From: Patescibacteria group bacterium
Lineage (GTDB): Bacteria; Patescibacteriota; Minisyncoccia; Phycocordibacterales; UBA1550
Direction of reading: 5' to 3'
DNA: 64,000 nt
Assembly: GCA_038057125.1 (NCBI GenBank)
Contig: JBBUDU010000003.1
Span: 15,046-79,045 of the forward strand
Below, one piece after another: positions 6,324-55,625 of this stretch (position 1 is its first letter; each line of letters opens with the position of its first letter). The notes beneath the pieces were generated by a model. The model searched no databases and had not been told where the DNA came from. It was given only the letters and a program-made list of their open reading frames with translations. The position numbers and the translations under genes were made by a program.

Positions 6324-6878
6324 ATGTTGAATAATTACGATAAAGGCGAGCTCGCCAAAGAGATCCTCATTGGTCTAGCTGCAGGTGGTTTTATTGTTGC
6401 GTGCCTTGCAATGCCAGGACTCACGAAAATCATACCTCTTTTTAAACCAAGTGGAGCAAGAGACAGGTATAGACTAAATCAAGCATTCCAGAAACTTCAC
6501 AATAAAAAACTAATAAGTATTTATACTAAGAATGGTAATGAGGTTGTAGAAATTACTAAGGCAGGTCAAAAAAAGGTTCTTCTGTACAATCTTGATGATA
6601 TGAGACTCATTGTACCCAAGAAATGGGATGGATGGTGGAGGATTGTGATGTTTGATATACCTGAATCAAAACGTCGTGGGCGTGACGCGGTGAGCAGGAA
6701 GATTAAGGAGCTTGGCATGTATCCTATTCAAAAGTCTGTTTTTGTATCGCCGTACATCTGTAAGAATGAGGTTGATTTCATAGGAGAGTTTTTTAATGTG
6801 CGAGAACATATTATTTATATCAAAGCCAAAGAGATAGAAGGCGTACGTGAATTAAAGGAATATTTTGGTATTTTATGA
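6324..6878 (+). CDS. winged-helix + Cas2/PaaX-like domain protein (cassette A)
   Basis: N-terminal hydrophobic stretch ILIGLAAGGFIVACLAMPGL and a wHTH-like middle part (LHNKKLISIYTKNGNEVVEITKAGQKK). The C-terminal WRIVMFDIPESKRRGRDAVSRKIKELGMYPIQKSVFVSPY resembles the Cas2/VapD/PaaX beta-alpha-beta core (xxxYDI..RRR..v.k.L...G...Q.SVF). Paralog of the 15690-16292 gene. Confidence 0.7.
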   Translation: MLNNYDKGELAKEILIGLAAGGFIVACLAMPGLTKIIPLFKPSGARDRYRLNQAFQKLHNKKLISIYTKNGNEVVEITKAGQKKVLLYNLDDMRLIVPKKWDGWWRIVMFDIPESKRRGRDAVSRKIKELGMYPIQKSVFVSPYICKNEVDFIGEFFNVREHIIYIKAKEIEGVRELKEYFGIL

Positions 6879-10038: not shown

Positions 10039-10530
10039 ATGAACGCTCGTTCCCAAAACGGACTTGTCCGCACGAGTTTTTTGAGGAAAAATTCTGGCGG
10101 ATTTTCACTTCTAGAACTCCTCATAGTTTTGGGGATTACGTCGCTACTCTTGGCGGCTGGTAGCGGTGTGTATCGCAATTTTGGTAAGAATGTGGAACTT
10201 ACTTCCACCTCGCAGGCTATGTCTGCGGATATGCGCCAGATGCAGTCGAAAGCGATGACGGGTGAGAGCAGTCTAAGGTGGGGAGTGAGCCTCATAAATA
10301 GCACCGACGATCGTTATGACCTCTTCTCGCTCACAGACGCTGGAGTGTACGCCACAGACACTACAATCTATCTTCCCAAAAGTATCACATTTTCCGACCC
10401 GACCGAAGGTACTGTCAAAAACATTATTTTCAGCAAGATTTCTGGTAGTACTACTGCCACCACCACGACCATCACATCCGAAGGTTCAATAGCAACAACC
10501 ACAATATCCAGCGTTGGAACTATATATTAG
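10039..10530 (+). CDS. pseudopilin / minor pilin
   Basis: Prepilin motif SGGFSLLELLIVLGITSLLL after a 20-aa basic leader. T-rich C-terminus. Confidence 0.8.
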   Translation: MNARSQNGLVRTSFLRKNSGGFSLLELLIVLGITSLLLAAGSGVYRNFGKNVELTSTSQAMSADMRQMQSKAMTGESSLRWGVSLINSTDDRYDLFSLTDAGVYATDTTIYLPKSITFSDPTEGTVKNIIFSKISGSTTATTTTITSEGSIATTTISSVGTIY

Positions 10531-15689: not shown

Positions 15690-16292
15690 ATGATTAAATA
15701 TAGTATGAAAAGCGCAGAGCTAAAACTCAAAAAGAAGATACGAAATTCAAAAATTCAAAAGGTTCTGTTGAATACCCTCTATATCGCTGGTGTTTTAGGC
15801 GTAGCAGTCGTTGCTCCAAAGATGCTATCGCTCTTAAAGCATCTTGATCCCCAAAAGAAAGGAAGCAGAAAATCAAGTGTGAATACTGCAATTAAGAGAC
15901 TTCAAGAGAAGGGGTTGGTTGTCTGGGAGAAGTCTGGTAATGGTATTTTTTTGAGATTAACAAACGAAGGAGAGAGAACACTTAAATTTATTGAGCGCAA
16001 TGAGTTTAAGATTACTAAACCTAAAAAATGGGACGAGAAATGGAGAGTTATAATTTTTGATATAAAAGAAACGAAGAGGGGACTCAGAGATAAATTTAGG
16101 AGAACACTTGTGCGAATAGGATTTCTAAAGTTACAGGATAGTGTTTGGGTGTACCCATATAATTGTGAGGAGCTGATGACCTTATTGAAAGCAGATTTTA
16201 TGATGGGAAAGGAAATTTTGTACATAATTGCTGACTCTATTGAGAACGATAAATGGGCGAAGAACCATTTCGGTCTTAAAACACCTAAGTAG
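15690..16292 (+). CDS. winged-helix + Cas2/PaaX-like domain protein (cassette B)
   Basis: Same architecture as the 6324-6878 product: hydrophobic VLLNTLYIAGVLGVAVVAP, wHTH-like IKRLQEKGLVVWEKSGNGIFLRLTNEGERTL, then KKWDEKWRVIIFDIKETKRGLRDKFRRTLVRIGFLKLQDSVWVYPY. Confidence 0.7.
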   Translation: MIKYSMKSAELKLKKKIRNSKIQKVLLNTLYIAGVLGVAVVAPKMLSLLKHLDPQKKGSRKSSVNTAIKRLQEKGLVVWEKSGNGIFLRLTNEGERTLKFIERNEFKITKPKKWDEKWRVIIFDIKETKRGLRDKFRRTLVRIGFLKLQDSVWVYPYNCEELMTLLKADFMMGKEILYIIADSIENDKWAKNHFGLKTPK

Positions 16293-18944: not shown

Positions 18945-19364
18945 ATGCCAACTCCAAAACTCCGAGAAGTGAAATATAAAGTGAAAAAGTCAAACTCCGG
19001 ACTCGGTCTTTTTGCGCTGGAACCGATTAAGCGTGGTACATGGATTATCGAATACGTCGGCAAGATACTTCGTGGTAAAGAAATAACACAGCATCCGGCA
19101 AATAAATACCTTTTTGAAACAAGTAATCGGCGTATGATAGATGGAAGTATGCGTTCAAACACTGCAAGGTACATCAACCACTCCTGCAAGCCAAATTGCT
19201 CGATTGAAATTTTTGGTGGACGCGTATTCGTTAAAGCGATTAAACGCATTTTGCCGGAGAGTGAGCTTACATACGACTATGGAAAGGAATATATCGAAGA
19301 ATATATAAAACCATACGGTTGTCGCTGTGCGCCGTGCAAGACTCCGTCCGGGTCGGAATTATGA
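18945..19364 (+). CDS. SET-domain protein (putative lysine methyltransferase)
   Basis: RYINHSCKPNC and ELTYDYG SET signatures plus a post-SET Cys cluster CRCAPC. Confidence 0.85.
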   Translation: MPTPKLREVKYKVKKSNSGLGLFALEPIKRGTWIIEYVGKILRGKEITQHPANKYLFETSNRRMIDGSMRSNTARYINHSCKPNCSIEIFGGRVFVKAIKRILPESELTYDYGKEYIEEYIKPYGCRCAPCKTPSGSEL

Positions 19365-25430: not shown

Positions 25431-25534
25431 AATTATATGGTAGTTAGTTTATAAGATAGCTCCTCAATGGGGCGCAAAAGCTATGCATTTATAATACCAT
25501 ATTGCCAAACAAAAAAGCCACCTTGGTTTTTTTG

Positions 25535-40205: not shown

Positions 40206-41438
40206 ATGCGCGTACTTATGTTCGGGTGGGAATTTCCTCCTCATAACAGTGGTGGCCTCGGCACCGCGTGTTTTGGACTTACGCGCGCGCTCGCGGCGCG
40301 AAAAATCGAAGTCCTTTTTGTACTCCCAAAAAAAGTTGGCGTTTCAGCCGACTTTATGAATATTCTTTTTGCGGACTCTCGTAAGGTAAAATTTTTGGAA
40401 ATTGAAACACCACTTAAACCATATGTTACCTCCGATGGTTACATACACGAACGAGATAAAATATTGTCGGATATTTATGGGAACACGCTCATGCAAGAAG
40501 TACGTCGCTACGCTATGCGCGCGCGCGAAATCGCAAAGAAGGAAAAGTTTGACATCATTCACGCGCACGACTGGCTTTCATTTCTCGCAGGCGTTGAAGC
40601 AAAAAAAGTTTCCGGCAAACCGCTCATCCTGCACATGCACGCAACAGAGTTTGACCGCACTGGGGGACAGGGGGTGAATCAGGATGTTTATAATATTGAA
40701 CGAGATGCAATGAACTATGCCGATGGCATTATCGCGGTCAGCAATTTTACCAAACAAAAAATTGTAGAACATTACGGCATTCCCGCTTCAAAAATCGAAG
40801 TGGTACACAACGGAATCGATGAATGTGATTATACAGATATTCCAAATAAGCTTTCGGAACTCAAACGGGCAGGACAAAAGATAGTCCTTTTTGTAGGACG
40901 CATTACAATCCAAAAAGGTCCCGAGTATTTTATTCGCGCGGCAAAGCGTGTTCTTGAAGTAAAACCAAACACTTTGTTTCTCATTGCAGGGAGCGGAGAC
41001 ATGGAGAGGCAAATGATGCTTGAGGCGGCGTACCTTGGAATTTCTGACCATGTTATTTTTGCTGGATTCCTACGTGGGGACGACCTGAATGCCGTGTACA
41101 GCGTAGCTGATCTTTTTGTGATGCCGTCTGTGTCGGAGCCATTCGGTATTACACCACTCGAGTCCATTATTGCAGGCGCGCCCGTGCTTATTTCGAAGCA
41201 GTCTGGTGTGTCCGAAGTCCTTACTCACGCGCTCAAAACGGATTTTTGGGATACGGAAGATATGGCGAACAAAATACTTGGTGTAATTTCACATCGCTCG
41301 CTTTGGCAGACTCTCTGGGGAAATAGTCGAGAAGAAGTGAAAAAAGTAACATGGGATGCGGCTAGCAAAAAGTGTATCGACTATTATGAAAAAATACTTT
41401 GTGACTGCGGGGTAGCTTCTGATGTACGGTATATCTGA
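40206..41438 (+). CDS. GT4-type glycosyltransferase (glycogen/alpha-glucan synthase-like)
   Basis: FPPHNSGGLGTA N-terminal motif. VGRITIQKG and PSVSEPFGITPLES are the GT-B C-terminal motifs. Confidence 0.85.
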   Translation: MRVLMFGWEFPPHNSGGLGTACFGLTRALAARKIEVLFVLPKKVGVSADFMNILFADSRKVKFLEIETPLKPYVTSDGYIHERDKILSDIYGNTLMQEVRRYAMRAREIAKKEKFDIIHAHDWLSFLAGVEAKKVSGKPLILHMHATEFDRTGGQGVNQDVYNIERDAMNYADGIIAVSNFTKQKIVEHYGIPASKIEVVHNGIDECDYTDIPNKLSELKRAGQKIVLFVGRITIQKGPEYFIRAAKRVLEVKPNTLFLIAGSGDMERQMMLEAAYLGISDHVIFAGFLRGDDLNAVYSVADLFVMPSVSEPFGITPLESIIAGAPVLISKQSGVSEVLTHALKTDFWDTEDMANKILGVISHRSLWQTLWGNSREEVKKVTWDAASKKCIDYYEKILCDCGVASDVRYI

Positions 41439-44749: not shown

Positions 44750-45175
44750 ATGACACCAGTTCATTCAGAGCCATCACCAGTAACACCACGCGATGAAATA
44801 GGTTTTAGAAAGATATATTCTGATTTAGTACGTAACCAAAAAATAACAACTATATTTCGTCCCGGAGAACGAACATGCAACCTCAACAAGGGGTTTTGCG
44901 AAGAGGAAATAGTTGATATAAAAATTATCGACAAGGTTGGGGCGGATTGGGCGACTCTGCCGCCAGAAACAATTTCTTTCAATCAAAAAGCTCAAATCTT
45001 GAGTGTTGATAACAGGGAAATAGGTTCTCTCGTTGTTGATGATTTTCGTGGATCTAGTCCTGATATTTTTGACAAACAATCTCTTGTTTATAATCTTGGT
45101 GTAATTTATAATCTTTCCCCATCTGAACTCGCTGATGATTGTATTGTTACAAAAACAACGTTTATTTATTTGTAA
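44750..45175 (+). CDS. hypothetical protein
   Basis: 141-aa ORF, last gene of the GT4-GH57-GH15 string. No confident family. Confidence 0.45.
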   Translation: MTPVHSEPSPVTPRDEIGFRKIYSDLVRNQKITTIFRPGERTCNLNKGFCEEEIVDIKIIDKVGADWATLPPETISFNQKAQILSVDNREIGSLVVDDFRGSSPDIFDKQSLVYNLGVIYNLSPSELADDCIVTKTTFIYL

Positions 45176-45241
45176 AAGTACCCGAGCTTTTCTTTGCCAA
45201 CTTTACTATTTCGTGATACGCTCAAAAAAGAAGTTCATAAT

Positions 45242-45312
45242 TATTAGCGACGTAGAGTGAGAGAAGTGAGAAAGTAATCTTTAACACTTCCGAGCCGAGG
45301 AGCTAATATAAG
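45242..45312 (+). repeat. ~71-nt conserved hairpin element, copy 1 (5' of the shikimate dehydrogenase-like gene)
   Basis: TATTAGC GACGTAGAGTGAGA [GAAGTGAGAAAG TAAT CTTTAACACTTC] CGAGCCGAGGA GCTAATA TAAG. Its ends are identical to the reverse complement of 55555-55625. Confidence 0.85.
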
Positions 45313-45361
45313 GGTAACTACCGCTTTTATTGCACACACAATGGAAAAAGGAGAAAATTTT

Positions 45362-46387
45362 ATGGAAAATCAGGATCAATTTTGTAACGGCTTGCTTCGG
45401 TTTGCAAAAGAACCAGTTAAAAACTTAGATTCTTTGTCAGACCTTGAAAGTCATGCTCATTACGGTATAGCCTTGATTGAACATGATTATCCGGGAAAAA
45501 CCCCAGCGATGTGGAATGCTGCGTATAAGCATTTCGGCATAGATGGGGCTGTGGCGATGATGGTCGGTGATCCTAAAGATACTGTCGGGATTCTTAGCAC
45601 GCTCAAGGCGGATCCAAAATATATCGGCGGAGGAGCAGGTGTTGGGTTCAAGGATGTGGCTTTTGATTATGTCGATGAGCTTGATCCTTTGGCAAAAGCC
45701 ATTGGGGCTATCAATCTCATTCAGAAACTTCCTTCCGGAGAACTCAAGGGGTGGAATACTGACGGGATTGGATACCGACAAAGCCTCGAGAAACTTCTTG
45801 AACAAAAAGGAGAGACTCTTGGAAATACTAAGATCGTCATGCTTGGCGCGGGCGGAACAGGCAACGCTGTTGCGATTGCTCTCGCGGAAAAAGGAGCTGA
45901 GATTGTTATTATTAATAGGACGTTGGAAAAAGCGGAAGAGCTTGCTCGTCGCATTAACAAATTTATCGGCGAGAATCGTGCAAGAGCTATGGGCGAAAAT
46001 GCAATAGCAAAGGAAGTTCTTGATGCTTCGGTAATAATTAATGTTTCTACAAAGGGAGCAACTGGTGCATTTGAGGCATATTCCGCTCTTGCGAAAGCTG
46101 TACTTCCTGCTACCGTTGAAAACATCTCCGAAAATCTGAGATTGTCTGAAAATATTTTTGCTCGCATTCCTACAGATGCAATCTTGAGTGATGTTGTCAT
46201 GCGCAGTACGCCTAGTCCTTTTTTGGAAGGAGCGTTTGCTCATGGATTCGAAACGCTCGACGGTATTCCTATGGTAATTAACCAAGGCGTAGAAGCATTT
46301 CTGATTATTCATGGTAAAGAAATCGGCGATAGTGACAATGTTCGGAGCCAATTGCGAGAAATTATGCAAAAAGCTGCAAATATGTAA
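45362..46387 (+). CDS. shikimate/quinate dehydrogenase-family protein
   Basis: YGIALIEHDY..KTPAMWNAAY, GGGAGVGFK, GAINLI, GWNTDGIGY, MLGAGGTGNAVAIAL Rossmann motif. The ATG at 45362 has an AAGGAG SD 8 nt upstream. An alternative ATG lies at 45341. Confidence 0.8.
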   Translation: MENQDQFCNGLLRFAKEPVKNLDSLSDLESHAHYGIALIEHDYPGKTPAMWNAAYKHFGIDGAVAMMVGDPKDTVGILSTLKADPKYIGGGAGVGFKDVAFDYVDELDPLAKAIGAINLIQKLPSGELKGWNTDGIGYRQSLEKLLEQKGETLGNTKIVMLGAGGTGNAVAIALAEKGAEIVIINRTLEKAEELARRINKFIGENRARAMGENAIAKEVLDASVIINVSTKGATGAFEAYSALAKAVLPATVENISENLRLSENIFARIPTDAILSDVVMRSTPSPFLEGAFAHGFETLDGIPMVINQGVEAFLIIHGKEIGDSDNVRSQLREIMQKAANM

Positions 46388-46400
46388 ATTTTGTATTTTT

Positions 46401-46432
46401 AGGGTCGCACCTTTGGTGCGACCCTATTTTTA
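46401..46432 (+). terminator. intrinsic terminator after the shikimate dehydrogenase-like gene
   Basis: agggtcgcacc ttt ggtgcgaccct then attttta. Confidence 0.8.
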
Positions 46433-46448
46433 TGATAATATAGAAAAT

Positions 46449-47288
46449 ATGTATATTTTATTTGATATTGGAGGTACAAAAATGCGCGTTGTTTCGGCCG
46501 ACCGAAAAAAATTTCTTGCAGAGCCAGTTGTTATTACAACTCCAAAAGATTTTGACGAAGGGATAGAAACGCTGAAGCGTATCATTAACAATCTTGCCAG
46601 CGGTTCGCCAATCGAAGCTATTGTTGGCGGGATTGCGGGCCCACTCAATCCTGAAAAGACGATGCTTGCGCGAAGTCCAAACCTAAGTGGCTGGGTGGGA
46701 CACGATATCAAAAGTGCTCTTGTAGAGACCTATAAGGCCCCTGTATCATTAGAAAATGATGCCGCGCTCGTTGGTCTTGGTGAAGCAAATTATGGCGCAG
46801 GGCGAGATAAATCCGTTGTTGTTTACATTACCATAAGTACTGGAGTAGGCGGTGTACGCATCGTAAATGGAAACATTGATCAGAATGCGCTTGGTTTTGA
46901 GCCAGGACACCAAATAATTGATCCGGATAATAGTCTGTGTCCGACGTGCGTTGGGAATGACCTTGAAGCATATGTATCCGGTACTGCTGTTGAAAAGCGT
47001 TTTGGCAAAAAACCATTTGAGATTAACGACGCTCTAGTGTGGGATGAACTAGCAAAATTCCTAGCATACGGGCTCAACAACACCATCGTGCATTGGTCTC
47101 CGGATATTGTCGTCCTCGGAGGCTCAATGATGAAAGAAGTTGGCATACCCGTTCCTGCGGTTACAAAACACCTTGCGGAAATAATGAAGATATTTCCAAA
47201 CATTCCACCGATAGTAAAAGCTGAACTCGCAGATTTTGGCGGACTCTACGGAGCGCTTTCATACGCTCGCTCGCATTATTACTACTAA
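46449..47288 (+). CDS. ROK-family sugar kinase (glucokinase-like)
   Basis: MYILFDIGGTKMRV ATP motif, ENDAALVGLGE, GVGGV, CPTC zinc-type motif. The ATG at 46449 follows the terminator at 46401-46432. Confidence 0.85.
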   Translation: MYILFDIGGTKMRVVSADRKKFLAEPVVITTPKDFDEGIETLKRIINNLASGSPIEAIVGGIAGPLNPEKTMLARSPNLSGWVGHDIKSALVETYKAPVSLENDAALVGLGEANYGAGRDKSVVVYITISTGVGGVRIVNGNIDQNALGFEPGHQIIDPDNSLCPTCVGNDLEAYVSGTAVEKRFGKKPFEINDALVWDELAKFLAYGLNNTIVHWSPDIVVLGGSMMKEVGIPVPAVTKHLAEIMKIFPNIPPIVKAELADFGGLYGALSYARSHYYY

Positions 47289-47357
47289 AGTCCCACTATA
47301 AAAAGAAAAACCCCCGCGTGAGCAGGGTTTTTGAAGTAAAGTATTACAAAAATATTT

Positions 47358-47546
47358 ACGGTTTGGGAGCGGCCTATACTTTTTTGGGATAGATCCCCAT
47401 GTCTTTCGGCCCATGACTACATTTTCACGGAGCGTTAAACTTTTGAAATTAGCGATGTCTTCTGGTATAGGATTTCCCCATGGAAGTTTGTTATTATTTC
47501 CGATTCCGCGATTTCTGTCCATTGCCGCTACTAGAATAATTGCCAT
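47358..47546 (-). pseudogene. folA: truncated dihydrofolate reductase remnant
   Basis: The first ~63 aa (MAIILVAAMDRNRGIGNNNKLPW...VVMGRKTWGSIPKKYRPLPNRK) align with the DHFR N-terminus. Similarity then stops, and the frame runs into the ROK terminator and gene end. Confidence 0.7.
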
Positions 47547-47548
47547 AA

Positions 47549-48875
<1,327 letters not shown>

Positions 48876-48985
48876 TGCAACTTACTGTAACCTGTTAAGG
48901 AAATTACAAAAATGGCCATTATGAATATTACGAACCATCTGCACCGTTCACATCTTAGCCAGAACTCTGCGAGATTTTTCATTCC

Positions 48986-49189
48986 TCATCCTACAATTTG
49001 TCGAGACGAGAATGCCGCAATTACACCAAGAGTAAATACAACACCTAGTACCCCAAGAACCCTCCACTTCTCTTCTTCTTTAATATTTATGCGAATAATG
49101 GGAGCAATGAAACATGCAAAAACGAGTATCACGATACACCACGCAATATAATCCCACGAAAACAAAAACTGACAGAACTTTATCAGCAT
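48986..49189 (-). CDS. small two-TM membrane protein (hypothetical)
   Basis: 67-aa ORF with two clear hydrophobic helices separated by RINIKEEEKWR. No family assignment. Confidence 0.4.
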   Translation of the reverse strand: MLIKFCQFLFSWDYIAWCIVILVFACFIAPIIRINIKEEEKWRVLGVLGVVFTLGVIAAFSSRQIVG

Positions 49190-49237
49190 AAACCCCTCCG
49201 ATTTAGCGACACAATCCTTACTAAAACTACCATTTTA

Positions 49238-49246
49238 TGATATATT
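49238..49246 (+). promoter_or_regulatory. extended -10 TGATATATT, 10 nt before the uvrB ATG
   Basis: Motif and spacing read directly. Confidence 0.5.
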
Positions 49247-49256
49247 GTCAACCTCA

Positions 49257-51269
49257 ATGCCTACTTTCAACTTAAAATCAGATTGGCCACCCGCGGGGGA
49301 CCAGCCAAAGGCAATCAAGGAGCTTTTGAGTGGAATTGCAAAAGGCATGCGCGCGCAGACCTTGCTTGGCGTGACTGGTTCTGGTAAAACCTTCACAATG
49401 GCGAATGTCATCGCCTCTGTCGGCAAGCCGACACTTGTCATTGCGCACAACAAAACCCTCGCGGCACAGCTTGCTCAGGAATACAAAGAATTTTTTCCCA
49501 ATAATGCGGTGCATTATTTTGTTTCCTACTACGATTATTATCAGCCCGAGGCATACATGCCGACGACAGATACCTATATCGAAAAGGACGCGCAAATCAA
49601 CGAAGAGATAGACCGCCTTCGCCACGCCTCCACACAGGCGCTCCTCACGCGTCGAGATGTCATCATCGTGGCATCGGTTTCATGTATTTACGGTTTAGGA
49701 AGTCCAGCCGAATATGAGAAAGAAAATATGAAGATTACAGTAGGGCAAAAAATCGATCGTAAAGAATTGATGCAAAAGCTTATAGCGATTCATTTTACTC
49801 GCACGAATGCAGACCTTACCCCCGGAACATTTCGTTCTATCGGAGCGCTCATTGAGATAATGCCAGTGTCTGAAAAGATAGTGTGGAGTGTTACACTTGG
49901 AATGAATGGTATACAGTCGATCAATAAGGTTGATCCAGTGTCACAAAAAATTATAGATGTACCTAAGTCATTTTTTATTTTTCCTGCGAAGCATTTTATT
50001 ACCAACAAAGCCGAAAAAGACCGCGCGATAAAAGCCATTAAAGCAGAGCTCACGACACAGCTCAAAAAATTCGAAAAAGATGGCAAGCTTCTAGAAGCAG
50101 AGCGTTTAAAGCGTCGCACCACATACGACCTTGCAATGATTCGCGAAGTTGGATACTGTAATGGCATCGAAAACTACTCGCGCCATATGTCAGGTCGCGC
50201 GGAAGGATCTGCGCCAGACACACTACTTTCATATTTCCCGCGTACAAAAAGTGGCAAACCTGACTTTCTTACAATCATTGATGAGTCTCACGTAACGATA
50301 CCGCAAATTGGTGGAATGTATGCCGGCGACCAATCCCGCAAAAAAACATTGGTAGAGTTTGGCTTTCGTTTGCCGTCTGCAATGGACAATCGCCCGCTTC
50401 GCTCAGAGGAATTTCATGAACGTGTAGGACAAATGATTTTCACTTCTGCAACTCCGTCCGTTTACGAGAAAGAAAACAGCGAGCAAGTGGTTGAGCAGGT
50501 AATTCGTCCGACCGGACTCATCGATCCGGAGATTTCTATTCGACCGATACTGGAGAAGGGAGAGTATAAGGGCCAGATTCAGGACTTCATCGCCGAAACA
50601 AAAACTGCGGTTAAAAAAGGCGGGCGGGTAATTGCCACCACGCTCACCAAAAAAATGGCGGAGGACCTTTCGGAATATTTAAAAGGGGAGGGGATAAAGG
50701 CCGAGTATCTGCACAGCGATATTAAAACACTTGAGCGTATTCAAATCTTGACCTCATTTCGCAAGGGGATATTCGACTGCCTTGTAGGTGTAAACCTTCT
50801 TCGTGAAGGGCTCGACTTGCCCGAAGTCACCCTTATCGGTATTCTCGATGCCGACAAAGAAGGATTTCTTCGCTCCGAAACTTCGCTTATTCAGATAATA
50901 GGCCGCGCGGCGCGAAATGTTCTAGGGCGCGTGATTCTTTATGCCGAGACTATCACGGGGTCCATAGAGCGCGCCGTAAGCGAAACAAACCGCCGACGCG
51001 GTATTCAGGTGGCACACAACAAAAAGCATGGCATCACTCCAAAAACTATTATCAAACAAATAAAAGACATTACCGAACACCTCGAGACCGACCATATGAA
51101 AGCAGTGAGGATTAATCTCGATATCGACGCTCAAGTCTTCGCAAAAAATCCCGAAAAACTTATTAAACTTAAAGAAAAAGAAATGTCCAAAGCGGTGAAA
51201 GAACTCGATTTTGAGACAGCGGCAATCTTGCGGGATGAGATAAAACTACTCAAAGGAAATATACAATAG
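49257..51269 (+). CDS. uvrB: excinuclease ABC subunit B
   Basis: [18 protein letters not shown], beta-hairpin region [11 protein letters not shown]-terminal UVR domain [11 protein letters not shown]. The ATG at 49257 is preferred over the TTG at 49245. Confidence 0.95.
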
Positions 51270-51296
51270 CTCAAATGTGTGGTATTCTTGCATACT

Positions 51297-53861
51297 ATGT
51301 CAGAAAACAAGAAACAGAAGGCATTAGACAAAATCACCGTTCGTGGCGCTCGAACACACAATCTGAAAAATATCAGCTTGGAAATTCCACGAGATAAAAT
51401 GATTGTTTTTACAGGACTCTCGGGCTCTGGAAAGTCTTCGCTTGCTTTTGACACTATCTTTGCCGAGGGTCAGCGTCGGTATGTTGAATCTCTATCGGCA
51501 TACGCACGGCAATTTTTGAATCAAATGCAAAAGCCCGATGTTGATGAAATCACCGGACTTTCTCCGTCTATTTCAATTGACCAAAAGTCGCACTCATCAA
51601 ATCCGCGCTCGACTGTCGCGACCATTACAGAAGTCTACGACTATTTGCGCGTGCTGTATGCGCGTATCGGCAAGCCACATTGCCTTGTATGCGGTACTGA
51701 AATTAAACGCCTCGGCAATGAAGAGATTTTGAATTTTATAATGGATGAAGTCAGGGGTGTCGCAGGGAAAAAGGCAACCTCAATGCGTATTTTTGCACCG
51801 CTTGTTCGCGGACGCAAAGGGGAATACTATCAACTCCTGTATGACCTTCTCGGAAAAGGATACTTGATGGTGCGCATTGACGGCGTTATGCACAATCTCC
51901 GCGAGAAAATTGAGCTTTCAAAAACAAAGAAACACGAAATTGATGTTCTTGTTGATGAAATTTTGCTTACCGATTTCAAAGGAAAAGAAAAAGGGCGTGA
52001 GAGGCTAGGCGAAGCCGTGGAAAAGGCGCTTGATGAATCTCAAAGCTTGGTTCGTATTGTATTTGCAGACAAGAAGTGGGACATAAAGGACTTTATAATG
52101 TCCAACCGTTTTGCATGTCCAAATGATGGTTTTTCATATCCTGAAATAGAGCCGAGACTTTTTTCATTCAACTCGCCATACGGCGCATGCGCTCTTTGTA
52201 ATGGCCTCGGTACGAAACATTTCTTTGGAAACGAGAACTGTCCAGACTGCGAAGGCGCGCGCCTTCGCAAAGAAGCACTCAGTGTTTTTGTAAGTGGGAA
52301 AAATATTGTCGAATTGGTAAATATGTCCATCAAAGATGCGTCAGATTTTTTTGCGAACTTAAAAATTTCCGCGCGTGATAAAGATATTTCCGTGCCGGTA
52401 ATAAAAGAAATTCAAAATCGCCTTTCGTTTATGTTGGAGGTAGGGTTGAATTATCTGACTCTGAGCCGTCGCGCGGGGACGCTTTCCGGAGGGGAGGGTC
52501 AGCGTATTCGCCTAGCGTCTCAGCTTGGTTCACGCCTTGTTGGGGCACTTTATGTACTCGACGAACCAACCATCGGCCTACATCAACGTGACAATGACCG
52601 GCTAATCAAAACCCTCAAAGATCTTCGTGATATGGGTAACACTATTATCGTTGTCGAGCACGATGAGGATACTATTTTTGCGGCAGACTATATGGTTGAC
52701 ATCGGACCCGGCGCCGGCGTGCACGGTGGGGAAATCGTGGTTTCAGGTGACCTTGATGAGCTCATTACAAATACAAAAAAATACAAATCACTTACACTCG
52801 ATTATTTGCGTGGTGATGTTTCCGTAGCTATTCCCAAAAGGCGCGACATCGATAAAGGACACCTTCGCATTCGCGAAGGAACTGTTTTCAATATTAAACG
52901 TTTGAATGTTGATATACCACTAGGTAAACTCGTTGCCATTACGGGTGTGTCTGGGTCTGGGAAGTCAACTTTAATGTACGAGCTTATCCATAAAAATTTA
53001 CAAGCGCGATTAGAGCGTCGTTATCGTACCAACGATATTTATAATTGCGAAGGTTTTACTGGCACAGAATACCTTTCACGTACTGTACTTATTGACCAAT
53101 CGGCAATAGGCCGCACACCGCGCTCAAACCCTGCAACATACACCGGCTCATTTACCTATATGCGCGATCTCTTTGCCGAGACAGCCGAGGCGCGCTTGCG
53201 TGGCTGGGGACCGGGGCGTTTTTCATTCAACGTAAAGGGCGGTCGTTGCGAGACTTGCCAAGGCAACGGCACTATAGCAGTCGAGATGCATTTTCTGCCA
53301 ACGGTGTATGTTACATGCGATGTGTGTCGCGGGAAGCGTTTTGAAAAAGACACCCTCGAAATAAAATACAAAAAGAAAAATATTTACGAGGTACTCGAAA
53401 TGACAGTTGAGGAAGCACTCAAATTTTTCGAAGACATTCCTTCGATTTATGATCGACTGAAAACTTTAAGTGATGTTGGTCTTGGATATCTTAAACTTGG
53501 GCAGTCCGCAACAACACTTTCTGGCGGAGAGGCTCAACGCGTAAAAATATCATCCGAGCTTTATCGTCCGCATGTAGAGAAAACAATTTACCTGTTGGAC
53601 GAACCAACCGTCGGCCTTCACTACGAAGATGTTCGCAAACTAATTGAAATCTTGCAAAAGCTTGTCGACAAGGGCAACAGCGTGATCCTCATCGAGCACA
53701 ATATGGATATCATAAAGAGTGCGGACTATGTAATAGATATTGGCCCCGAAGGCGGGGAGGGTGGTGGACAAATAGTGGCGCGCGGAACCCCCGAGCAAAT
53801 CGCCGCAAGTCCAAACTCGCACACTGGCAAGTATTTAAAGAGAATCTTGAAAAGAAAATAG
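51297..53861 (+). CDS. uvrA: excinuclease ABC subunit A
   Basis: Two ABC modules ([18 protein letters not shown]; [16 protein letters not shown]) and zinc fingers CPDC / [12 protein letters not shown]. Confidence 0.95.
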
Positions 53862-53884
53862 CCACTGATTAAGTGGCTATTTAT
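53858..53884. terminator. hairpin between convergent uvrA and the 53892-54221 ORF
   Basis: atagccac tgattaa gtggctat. Confidence 0.55.
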
Positions 53885-53891
53885 GGTGGAT

Positions 53892-54221
53892 TTATTTTCT
53901 TTGTGGAGTATGGAAAATATCAACAGCCACCAGATCAGAGGGCGCGGTGTATCCGTTTAGGTTCTTGTTCCAACTGGCAAATTCTTCAACAAAAACGCAC
54001 GCCGCATGCTCATTGTAACAAGACCAAATCGGGTCGTAATCCACAAGACCAGAATCAATCAATGAAATGAGTATCTCCGACGCTTCTTGTTCAAGAAGCT
54101 TTGGCGCATATAAGGCATCAAGCTGGAAATTGTTTTCCAATGTGTGATAAATAATTTTAAAGATCTCGGGAAAGATAGCTTTTATGGTTTCTGCTTCTTT
54201 GAACCGGAGGCTTCCGATCAT
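53892..54221 (-). CDS. hypothetical protein
   Basis: ORF between uvrA and uvrC on the opposite strand. Start set at MIGSLRFKE to leave a divergent promoter gap with uvrC. No family recognised. Confidence 0.4.
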   Translation of the reverse strand: MIGSLRFKEAETIKAIFPEIFKIIYHTLENNFQLDALYAPKLLEQEASEILISLIDSGLVDYDPIWSCYNEHAACVFVEEFASWNKNLNGYTAPSDLVAVDIFHTPQRK

Positions 54222-54283
54222 TTCGTTCCCCTTGTATATTGTCCTTGTATAACTATATACTAACATCATAAAAATCGCAAAAT

Positions 54284-55543
54284 ATGAAAAAACTGACAAA
54301 AAAACTCCCAGATTGTCCCGGTGTCTATATATTTCGAGGGCCCAAACGCGCAATTTTTTACATTGGCAAGGCAACATCGCTTCGCACGCGTGTTGCGAGC
54401 TATTTTCGCAGTGACCTCATTTCCACACGCGGTCCAATCATTTTGGGAATGATAGAGTCTGCGCAGACTGTAGATTTTATCGAAACTGACTCTGTGCTTG
54501 AAGCGCTTATCCTTGAGGCGCATCTCATCAAAAAACATCAGCCACCGTACAATACCAAAGAAAAAGATAATAAAAGTTTCAACTATGTCATTGTCACAAA
54601 AGAGGACTTCCCGCGGGTACTGACCATGCGCGGGCGCAACTTGGAAACCCGACATCCAAGTGAAATAAAATATTCTTTCGGGCCATTTCCGCAAGGAAGT
54701 GTTTTGCGCGAAGCGCTAAATATCGTTCGTAAGATTTTCCCGTTTCGCGATAGGTGCCTGCCCGCCACTGCGCATCGCTCCACAATCGGAGCAGAGATGC
54801 GATGGCAGGCGGGTAAGTCGGAGTCGGGCAAGCCGTGCTTCAATGCACAAATAGGTCTTTGCCCTGGGGTGTGTGCTGGCGCAATCTCACGATTGGAGTA
54901 TGCAAAAACAATCATGCGTATCAAATTGTTCTTTGAGGGAAAAAAGAAAACTCTTATTGTCGGACTTAAAAAAGAAATGGGAATCGCGGCAAAAGGTTTA
55001 AAGTTCGAAGATGCCGGTCGAATCAAAAAAATGATTTTCGCGCTCAATCATATTCAAGACATCGCACTTATTAAAGCTTCCTCGAGTACTATCCTTGGGG
55101 AAGCGGGTTTCCGTATCGAAGCTTACGACGTCGCCCATATTTCCGGCACAAGTGTGGTTGGAGGAATGGTTGTTGTGGAGGACAACGAACCCAAAAAGAG
55201 CGACTACAGAAAATTTAAAATCCGTACGAGTACCAACGACGACAATGCCTCGCTTCGCGAAATACTTGAGCGTCGTTTTGCGCACGCTGAGTGGCCAATG
55301 CCAAAACTTATTGTCGTAGACGGCGGTATAGCTCAAGTGAATACAGCCGAACGCGCTCTAAAAGAATACGGAATAGCAATTCCCGTTGTTGGAGTTGTAA
55401 AAGACGAGCACCATAAACCGAAAAATATCCTTGGCGACAAAGCCGTTGCATCCGCCCATGATCGGGCAATTCTTCTCGCCAACAGCGAAGCCCACCGGTT
55501 TGCAGTGGGCTTCCATAGGAAGATTCGTGGCAAACTAAAATAA
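54284..55543 (+). CDS. uvrC: excinuclease ABC subunit C, short form lacking the C-terminal (HhH)2 region
   Basis: GIY-YIG N-terminus (PGVYIFRG...IFYIGKATSLRTRV), UVR domain (FEDAGRIKKMIFALNHI), RNase H-like endonuclease region (EAYDVAHISGT). Ends at 419 aa. Confidence 0.88.
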   Translation: MKKLTKKLPDCPGVYIFRGPKRAIFYIGKATSLRTRVASYFRSDLISTRGPIILGMIESAQTVDFIETDSVLEALILEAHLIKKHQPPYNTKEKDNKSFNYVIVTKEDFPRVLTMRGRNLETRHPSEIKYSFGPFPQGSVLREALNIVRKIFPFRDRCLPATAHRSTIGAEMRWQAGKSESGKPCFNAQIGLCPGVCAGAISRLEYAKTIMRIKLFFEGKKKTLIVGLKKEMGIAAKGLKFEDAGRIKKMIFALNHIQDIALIKASSSTILGEAGFRIEAYDVAHISGTSVVGGMVVVEDNEPKKSDYRKFKIRTSTNDDNASLREILERRFAHAEWPMPKLIVVDGGIAQVNTAERALKEYGIAIPVVGVVKDEHHKPKNILGDKAVASAHDRAILLANSEAHRFAVGFHRKIRGKLK

Positions 55544-55554
55544 AAGCACTTCGT

Positions 55555-55625
55555 CTTATATTAGCTCCTCGGCTCGAAAATACAAAAGATTACTTTTGTA
55601 TTTTGCTCGCTCTACGTCGCTAATA
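55555..55625 (-). repeat. ~71-nt conserved hairpin element, copy 2 (overlaps the last codons of the YqeY-like gene, between convergent uvrC and yqeY)
   Basis: 22-nt exact match (55555-55576 = reverse complement of 45291-45312) and 16-nt exact match (55610-55625 = reverse complement of 45242-45257). Central perfect 12-bp stem aaaatacaaaag/cttttgtatttt with loop atta. Confidence 0.85.

Follow-up and report, generated by a model that had tools for sequence, protein, structure and literature searches.

In the attC sites of integrons and the attP hairpin of the CTX phage (XerCD), structure is conserved, stem sequence is variable and one strand is selected; the crossover takes place in a short helix that is partly supplied by the neighbouring DNA, and the boundary sequence is repeated on both sides. 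We compare them here by these features. Insertion sequences of the IS200/IS605 family are excised as a circle of the top strand, the donor retains the target, and a TTAC target is read by an internal guide (PMC3201880, PMC5027513). Repetitive extragenic palindromes (REPs) are 20-40-bp palindromes with an unpaired GTAG or CGTC tag, and copies of them flank the gene of a REP-associated tyrosine transposase (RAYT) (PMC3733652). Here, we describe a hairpin sequence that occurs twice, in opposite orientation, in a 64,000-nt stretch (the window) of contig JBBUDU010000003.1 from a Patescibacteria group bacterium, a member of the candidate phyla radiation (CPR). The two hairpins are probably copies of a short, gene-less, non-autonomous mobile element that folds as a single strand, is dispersed among CPR bacteria and chooses TTAYN targets by internal pairing.

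A first-pass annotation of the window had placed a 71-nt hairpin at 45242-45312 (+) and 55555-55625 (-), with blocks of 16 and 22 nt shared exactly by the two, and both copies are found there. The 22-mer CGAGCCGAGGAGCTAATATAAG occurs exactly twice in the window, at 45291-45312 (+) and 55555-55576 (-), and its chance expectation is nil (zero occurrences in 100 shuffles, even with three mismatches allowed). The 16-mer TATTAGCGACGTAGAG also occurs exactly twice, once per strand. The 71 nt stand as a core, and the full inserted unit extends beyond them, to 86 nt in copy 1 (45246-45331) and 83 nt in copy 2 (55621-55539, minus strand); both segments have a small hairpin on the 3' side and close with T(T)ATT.

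At two independent sites, the element is present in the window and absent from the orthologous position in relatives, and is flanked by a short target repeat, as is required of a transposable insertion. The junction between the YqeY-like gene and uvrC lacks it in four relatives, whose YqeY proteins are 92, 90, 87, and 83% identical to that of the window. In the first three, the two genes are convergent and abut or overlap. In the window, their frames lie 68 nt apart, and this spacer consists entirely of element sequence. Copy 2, which had been seen to cover the final YqeY-like codons, supplies the last codons of this gene and its stop, a TAG that falls within GACGTAGAG; the window protein ends in ...DELLAT*, and those of the relatives in ...DELF* or ...DELFI*. 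The end of UvrC, ...GKLK*, is kept in the window as in the relatives, and copy 2 sits on the UvrC stop. Deleting 55621-55539, which holds the unit with one TATT, gives GACGAAC-TATT-TTAGTTTGCC, a junction that encodes exactly ...DELF* for YqeY and ...GKLK* for UvrC. The TTATTT(T/A)A at the 3' end of copy 2 is ancestral flank, present in two of the loci compared (L119 and L123; loci are denoted by L numbers throughout). In the 83% relative, the junction holds an unrelated GC-rich hairpin, CAGCCCAGGTAAGTGCCTGGGCTG (L125, 2956-3020), suggesting that the same site has been struck independently by another insertion.

Upstream of the shikimate-dehydrogenase-like gene, the spacer is element-free in relatives at 90% and 69% identity, where it measures 68 and 82 nt and has alignable flanks. 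The window spacer between a 141-aa open reading frame (ORF) and this gene measures 165 nt; the additional sequence is 45246-45331, with TTATT on both sides, and copy 1 comes to lie 32 nt upstream of the gene. Relatives L127 and L128 carry a single AT-rich copy of the copy 1 target without the element, and the junction at this site with one repeat retained would read ATAATTATT-GCACACAC. In many other CPR genomes, the 141-aa ORF and the 348-aa shikimate-dehydrogenase-like ORF (44750-46387) form a single protein of 470-500 aa. The gene is also split in the element-free relatives, and the split therefore predates the element. In the metagenome-assembled genome (MAG) UBA12043, the element is absent from the YqeY-UvrC junction (L120) and a copy is present elsewhere (L072). 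By these sequence comparisons, both window copies are recent, lineage-specific insertions of a dispersed mobile repeat.

Both 71-mers fold alike, into a 7-bp outer stem (P1), a large asymmetric internal loop (5' GACGUAGAGYGAGM / 3' CGAGCCGAGGA in the window) and an inner hairpin (P2) with a UAAU loop. These folds reach -21.7 and -23.9 kcal/mol (z = -5.1 and -5.3 against shuffles), and the complementary strands fold worse (z = -2.9 and -3.7). The two copies have different pairs at eight of the 12 P2 positions. Pairing in P2 is 12/12 in copy 2 and 10/12 in copy 1, where the inner stem surrounds a 2x2 internal loop (AG/AA), as it had been drawn in the first-pass annotation. The features of the two copies are as follows.

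45241-45245 (+): copy 1, 5' direct repeat or target TTATT; its last four bases are the first four of the P1 5' strand, and the same pentamer lies at 45327-45331.
45242-45248 (+): copy 1, P1 5' strand TATTAGC, which pairs with 45302-45308; P1 covaries in the family.
45249-45262 (+): copy 1, 5' half of the invariant loop, GACGTAGAGTGAGA, defined by the conservation of the loop columns.
45263-45290 (+): copy 1, P2 hairpin, with 12 positions per arm, 10 of them paired, the 2x2 AG/AA loop and the terminal loop TAAT, from the fold.
45291-45301 (+): copy 1, 3' half of the invariant loop, CGAGCCGAGGA, from the exact block and family conservation.
45302-45308 (+): copy 1, P1 3' strand GCTAATA, the AATA of which is complementary to both direct repeats.
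45305-45331 (+): copy 1, 3' hairpin P3, AATATAAGGG-TAACTA-CC(G)CTTTTATT, ending in the repeat TTATT (45327-45331); the end of the unit is set by the empty-site alignment.
55619-55625 (-): copy 2, P1 5' strand TATTAGC; the 5' direct repeat TATT is 55625-55622.
55605-55618 (-): copy 2, 5' half of the invariant loop, GACGTAGAGCGAGC, holding the current YqeY-like stop TAG (55614-55612).
55577-55604 (-): copy 2, P2 hairpin of 12 bp with the loop TAAT, from the fold.
55566-55576 (-): copy 2, 3' half of the invariant loop, CGAGCCGAGGA, within the repeated 22-mer.
55559-55565 (-): copy 2, P1 3' strand GCTAATA, from the fold.
55539-55562 (-): copy 2, 3' hairpin AATATAAGAC-GAA-GT(G)CTTTTATT, ending in the repeat TATT (55542-55539) and overlapping the UvrC stop (55541-55543, +).

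A pattern scan for the two loop halves 10-40 nt apart, over one genome per species (GTDB), gave at least 118 loci. Named records among the matches listed are all Patescibacteria/CPR and come from Kaiser-, Yonath-, Nomura-, Vogel-, Zambryski-, and Campbellbacteria and from Doudna-, Komeili-, and Buchananbacteria; further matches fall in one Shapirobacteria contig and in many MAGs labelled Saccharibacteria. A few matching third-party assemblies bear the labels Gammaproteobacteria, Roseivirgaceae, or Planctomycetia, which we suspect to be mis-assigned. The homologues of the window YqeY place its organism close to Candidatus Yonathbacteria. Several MAGs contribute three to five loci each among the matches listed, and one holds four copies that are 86-95% identical over ~150 nt together with a fifth that is a deletion derivative. 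No match to the pattern is found in the IMG/VR viral contigs, and a phage origin was rejected on this ground.

Units reach ~215 nt outside the window. None contains an ORF, and the sampled loci hold no version on the kilobase scale; an autonomous long version was rejected, as no partner helix of the 13/14-nt type occurs within 8 kb besides the short units. In the long forms (L014, 6700-6860; L093, L102, L021, L115, and L046), a modular second domain is added, in which a hairpin with a GAGCGAAGCGAG-type loop stands in the middle, besides two GC-rich ones that have loops CUCUG or CUUG, each with AAUACC before it. The triloop C-GAA-G is found repeatedly, and the 3' hairpin of window copy 2 also has it. 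Searches against Rfam 15 return only a tRNA for the window at the gathering threshold, only tRNAs for 16 loci with the long form, two chance-level matches for the copy 1 region at E <= 10, and nothing relevant for the full L014 unit at E <= 10. Literature searches by sequence and by topic found no description of the element. Within Rfam 15 and the literature that can be searched, the family has no description.

A covariance model (R1), of the kind proposed with the first-pass annotation, recovers many further copies in related CPR DNA: 110 are found in the window and the first 99 loci, and the statistics rest on the 109 that are distinct. Pairing is intact in 93.6% of cells, against 70% in column shuffles, and double-change cells number 426 against 95. 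Shuffling lowers the covariation score from 0.61 to 0.18, and none of 500 shuffles comes as high. As a control, sliding the 3' partner by one to three columns lowers pairing to 37-50%. P2 is 96.6% paired (96% in the 57 copies of equal length), and changes on both sides are seen at all 12 pairs in either set. The outer pairing UAUUAGC/GCUAAUA, proposed earlier from the window alone, is real and also covaries across the family (U-A to C-G, A-U to G-C, and G-C to A-U). The claim that the hairpin is under selection thus survives, and with 110 relatives the covariation is overwhelming. Wobble pairs in P2 are biased, with 39 G-U and U-G against 10 A-C and C-A, from which it follows that selection acts on the fold of one defined strand, that written GACGUAGAG...

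The resulting family architecture comprises the 7 bp of P1, a near-invariant asymmetric loop (5' GACGUAGAGYGAGN / 3' CGAGCCGAGGA) and a P2 of ~12 bp. The 25 loop positions are 98-100% identical in the distinct copies, except for a Y at loop position 10 and an N at position 14, in a set of which 103 of 110 copies were retrieved by exact loop match; the seven found by the model alone have single substitutions in the loop. Presumably, the loop can be drawn as an irregular helix, with a tandem G.A, a C-G pair, a GUA/GA bulged-G module, two Watson-Crick pairs, a second tandem G.A, and a G-C pair. A K-turn reading was dropped by reasoning, as position 2b would be U and not A.

The model finds no match, even with its filters off, at the possible third relative that the first-pass annotation had reported at ~25451-25467, where BLAST shows a 9-mer match at noise level, one of dozens. 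On the minus strand of 25440-25470, GAGGAGCTA is followed after 10 nt by TAACTACC, collinear with the 3' part of copy 1, where the same two words are 9 nt apart. With its collinear 8-mer TAACTACC, this site may at most be a decayed 3' fragment of the element and is not significant by either method. The 10-mer TAGCGACGTA of the element's 5' end also occurs inside ORFs at 10137-10146 (-) and 40501-40510 (-), probably by chance.

At the boundary, the family carries a direct repeat of 4-8 nt, (T)T-A-Y-N, which is TTATT in the window and TTTACT, TATA, or TACG elsewhere. The 3' ends ...CCTTTATT, ...CTATATT, ...GGTTTACT, and ...CCTTACG repeat the 5' starts TTTATT-AGC, TTTACT-GGC, and TACG-AGC. The direct repeat stops sharply at P1 position 4, later matches declining as chance predicts. 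Conservation sets in abruptly 2 nt before P1 (consensus T-T-T-A-Y-T), with information close to zero from -45 to -3. Head-to-tail tandem copies share a single repeat (L019, L051, and L054). The repeat can pair with the bases that end the P1 3' strand, directly 3' of the core, which read AAUA, or GAAA with an A.A mismatch; its variants TATT, TACT, TATA, and TACG change together with this internal complement. The same AAUA/GAAA bases also begin helix P3, which closes the variable 3' domain, so that P1 and the base of P3 compete for 3-4 bases in the integrated copy.

When circularised in silico, the window units form one rod across the junction, with the invariant loop in a central position. In a circular unit, which would hold one repeat only, P1 and P3 would merge into a junction helix, ...CUUUUAUU.AGC / GCU.AAUAUAAG... 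The proposed mechanism is that the strand GACGUAGAG... folds and that its circle or junction form becomes a continuous rod, the repeat and AGC pairing with GCU and AAUA. A strand-transfer enzyme acting in trans would find in the invariant loop its recognition or catalytic site, the internal AAUA segment would pick TTAYN targets by base pairing, and insertion would leave the target sequence on both sides. The closest worked-out model is that of IS200/IS605, in which a single-stranded DNA circle moves by peel-and-paste, and the intermediate would be DNA rather than RNA.

Among described systems, the element shares with IS200/IS605-type palindrome-associated transposable elements (PATEs) the lack of terminal inverted repeats, a single active strand, imperfect hairpins near the ends, and insertion beside a specific tetranucleotide (TTAC in IS608, TAYN here). 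The likeness would extend to the reading of the target by a short internal pairing that includes a non-canonical A.A, and to a circular single-strand intermediate with a sealed donor that keeps the target. The target T-A-Y-N and the internal complement of the element do covary, in a geometry unlike that of IS608: the IS608 guide lies 5' of the hairpin foot, whereas the element has its complement 3' of the hairpin, as one strand of an ordinary helix, P1. The element also differs from IS200/IS605 in that its own 3' end repeats the target and its left and right hairpins are unlike each other, and in the lack of a cognate Y1 TnpA bounded by the same ends in ~1 Mb of CPR DNA. With RAYT-mobilised REPs and their inverted doublets (REPINs), it has in common that it is short, multi-copy, intergenic, structured, and gene-less, and its core GTAG lies directly 5' of an extended imperfect palindrome, its complement containing CGTC. 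REPs, however, are simple and usually lineage-specific, whereas the element measures 83-215 nt, has two helices and a big loop, and retains the same core across CPR classes. Its copies are mostly singletons and not inverted doublets, and do not stand beside the RAYT-like genes seen, which are flanked by other repeats. On unit size, architecture, and these neighbours, we do not count it among the REP/RAYT systems.

Nor do we assign it to the integron attC sites. The boxes RYYYAAC/GTTRRRY are absent, P1 being TATTAGC/GCTAATA or TACTGGC/GCCAGAA; the copies are dispersed singletons, without arrays, cassette ORFs, or a recurrent integrase; and the conserved part is a 25-nt sequence and not shape alone. 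Miniature inverted-repeat transposable elements (MITEs), enterobacterial repetitive intergenic consensus (ERIC) sequences, and the Correia-type repeats of Neisseria are, like the element, small non-autonomous intergenic insertions that can be conserved across genera and can alter gene ends or expression. The element has no terminal inverted repeats (5' AGCGACG... against 3' ...GGAACC or ...GTGCTTT), which sets it apart from all three and rejects a MITE of the DDE-transposase-derived kind. The self-cleaving ribozymes (hammerhead, twister, hatchet, pistol, HDV-like, and hairpin) were likewise rejected, with no Rfam match at E <= 10. IS200/IS605-type PATEs, REPs, and attC-like sites come nearest to the element, which was not assigned to any of them by the tests applied.

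The orientation of neighbouring genes was taken from crude ORF calls at 122 instances. The upstream gene runs with the element in 60 and against it in 45, and for the downstream gene these counts are 61 and 51 (of 112). The four contexts ++, --, +-, and -+ number 24, 18, 14, and 13, and ~40% of the copies within co-directional gene pairs are antisense to both neighbours. As a proxy for the bias toward the lagging-strand template that is looked for in PATEs, the count of copies running with or against co-directional genes (24 against 18) carries no information. Such near-random orientation indicates that the family is neither a 5'-untranslated-region (5'-UTR) element nor a terminator, contrary to the first-pass annotation, which had assigned the former role to copy 1 and that of a bidirectional terminator to copy 2. 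A consensus scan for intrinsic terminators finds none at either copy. The GAGGAG thought to be exposed for the shikimate-dehydrogenase-like gene belongs to the invariant core and is not the ribosome-binding site of that gene, which in element-free relatives retains its own AAAGGAG. The original finding is nevertheless real, and more interesting than its author could know, for reasons other than those given.

Further roles were examined and set aside. No promoter-like signal is found at a fixed upstream distance across the family, and a stand-alone small-RNA gene was rejected on this ground. No protein family recurs as a neighbour among 796 ORFs, in which release factors, ValRS, pilins, and FtsE form the largest clusters. 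The inverted copies in the window do not bound a composite transposon, as the 10 kb between them hold the housekeeping genes for the shikimate-dehydrogenase-like protein, ROK, TGT, UvrB, UvrA, and UvrC. A sigma-70-like match in copy 1 (TTAACA, 17 nt, TAATAT; window 45281-45309), with a -10 hexamer that spans the P1 3' strand and the next base, could drive outward transcription. A promoter embedded in the element was rejected, since TTAACA-17-TAATAT is not conserved in the TAC-type or short-P2 copies.

Several observations weigh against a mobile element. An exact empty allele from the same species was not found, and the predicted empty YqeY-UvrC allele has 0 matches in metagenomes; the target duplication is therefore reconstructed from relatives whose flanking protein is 83-92% identical. 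No excised or circular form was observed. Neither a mobilising enzyme nor any protein family recurrent beside the at least 118 loci was found, and the 40 of 68 window ORFs scanned against Pfam include no transposase, recombinase, or reverse transcriptase (the other 28 are mostly those of the pilus-region stretch at 8.8-15.5 kb and short ORFs). A query with E. coli RayT gave one weak match, a genuine Y1_Tnp gene in L025 (7028-7702, -), with a homologue in L050 (4370-5077, +); these are the only two Y1_Tnp genes in the ~1 Mb of CPR DNA, which is made up of 8-kb loci. Both are flanked by unrelated palindromes of their own, CGTCAAGGTGAGTCCTTGACC in L025 and AACCAGCAAGGCGACGCCTTGCTGGTT in L050, one of which is CGTC-tagged in the sense of PMC3733652. 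Two such genes in 118 loci is about the chance rate, and a RAYT/REP link was rejected on this ground and on that of the palindromes; the RAYT-like genes and their palindromes are a second, separate REP-like system in CPR MAGs. The loop conservation figures, for their part, are inflated, because most copies were retrieved by exact loop match. The near-invariance of 25 nt across CPR classes exceeds that of usual selfish repeats, and a host RNA-protein function would fit it as well. The drawing with tandem G.A and a GUA/GA G-bulge consists of what we take to be typical RNA motifs.

These points lead to the alternatives. A structured RNA module with a host function (a small RNA or UTR element, protein-binding or catalytic), duplicating in the genome and with the loop as a three-dimensional motif for a conserved CPR protein, is rather unlikely. 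It would account for the extreme conservation of the loop beside covarying helices, for the excess of G-U over A-C on one strand, for a loop presumably built of tandem G.A and bulged-G modules, and for the many copies that end in a hairpin followed by a U-rich tract. It is difficult to reconcile with the lack of a conserved promoter, with the many copies antisense to both neighbours, with window copies that are precise, recent, and repeat-flanked insertions, with tandem copies sharing one repeat, and with the lack of a matching Rfam family. The copies might instead serve gene ends as terminators or as hairpins that stabilise mRNAs, perhaps in a secondary role for which the repeat was exapted. 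Copies are intergenic, often lie right after stop codons or after the T-runs of upstream terminators, and have UUUUAUU after the 3' hairpin. We consider this reading improbable, given the negative terminator scan at both window copies, the 13 copies between divergent genes, the random orientation, and the 25 invariant loop nucleotides that it leaves unexplained; an intrinsic terminator in particular was rejected on the scan and on the 45 copies with an opposite upstream gene.

Quite improbable, in our assessment, is a retro-element or ribozyme-bearing circular RNA (retrozyme- or viroid-like) that would be transcribed, processed at the repeat, circularised, reverse-transcribed, and re-integrated. 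Its sole positive support is the perfect rod of the in-silico circle with the conserved loop at its centre; the strand asymmetry and a 3' end resembling a hairpin with a U-tract, a possible transcript end, are compatible with it. No self-cleaving ribozyme of Rfam matches, even at the permissive threshold, no reverse transcriptase recurs nearby, and the sharp 5' ends with a short repeat at a fixed boundary are unlike the products of target-primed reverse transcription. A cis-regulatory leader or riboswitch, in which P1 and the 3' hairpin compete for AAUA, is highly improbable. The two helices are mutually exclusive over 3-4 bp, copy 1 lies close upstream of a gene, and tandem arrangements exist, but the orientation statistics, with the downstream gene on the opposite strand in 51 of 112 cases, largely refute it. 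The genes downstream of the copies are housekeeping genes unrelated to one another, copy 2 points at the 3' end of a convergent gene, and relatives have the same genes without the element; a riboswitch or 5'-UTR regulator was rejected for the mixed orientation and these unrelated neighbours.

The mobile element folding as a single strand thus remains our preferred reading. A stronger form of it, which we put forward only tentatively and hold to be unlikely, is that the family represents a new, CPR-restricted class of guide-directed mobile elements, unrelated to the TnpA of IS200/IS605. Its members would form a rod-like single-stranded circle (of DNA or RNA), the universally conserved 25-nt, loop-E-like core would be catalytic or a dock for a conserved CPR strand transferase, and TTAYN would be chosen by Watson-Crick pairing with AAUA/GAAA.

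Apart from the element, the window holds two paralogous ORFs with a PaaX_M 'Cas2-like' domain (6324-6878 and 15690-16292), which flank a cluster of type IV pilus/T2SSE ATPase genes, and encodes a 139-aa SET-domain protein at 18945-19364.

The genomes of CPR bacteria (Patescibacteria) are tiny and streamlined and are thought to be poor in repeats and mobile DNA, and a shared structured repeat is unexpected in them. The conservation of its core is as strong as that of a ribozyme or ribosomal motif. The element rewrites gene ends and will mislead gene callers and screens for non-coding RNA, where covariation alone would wrongly point to a riboswitch. Its insertion polymorphism provides strain-level markers for the population genomics of CPR bacteria. 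If targets are indeed chosen by AAUA/GAAA pairing, the system of ~85 nt would be small enough to reprogram and test directly, and if the guide-directed class is borne out, it would constitute a minimal, naturally programmable insertion system that owes nothing to TnpA. In either case, the element offers a handle on a strand-transfer or RNA-binding activity of bacteria nearly all of which are uncultured.

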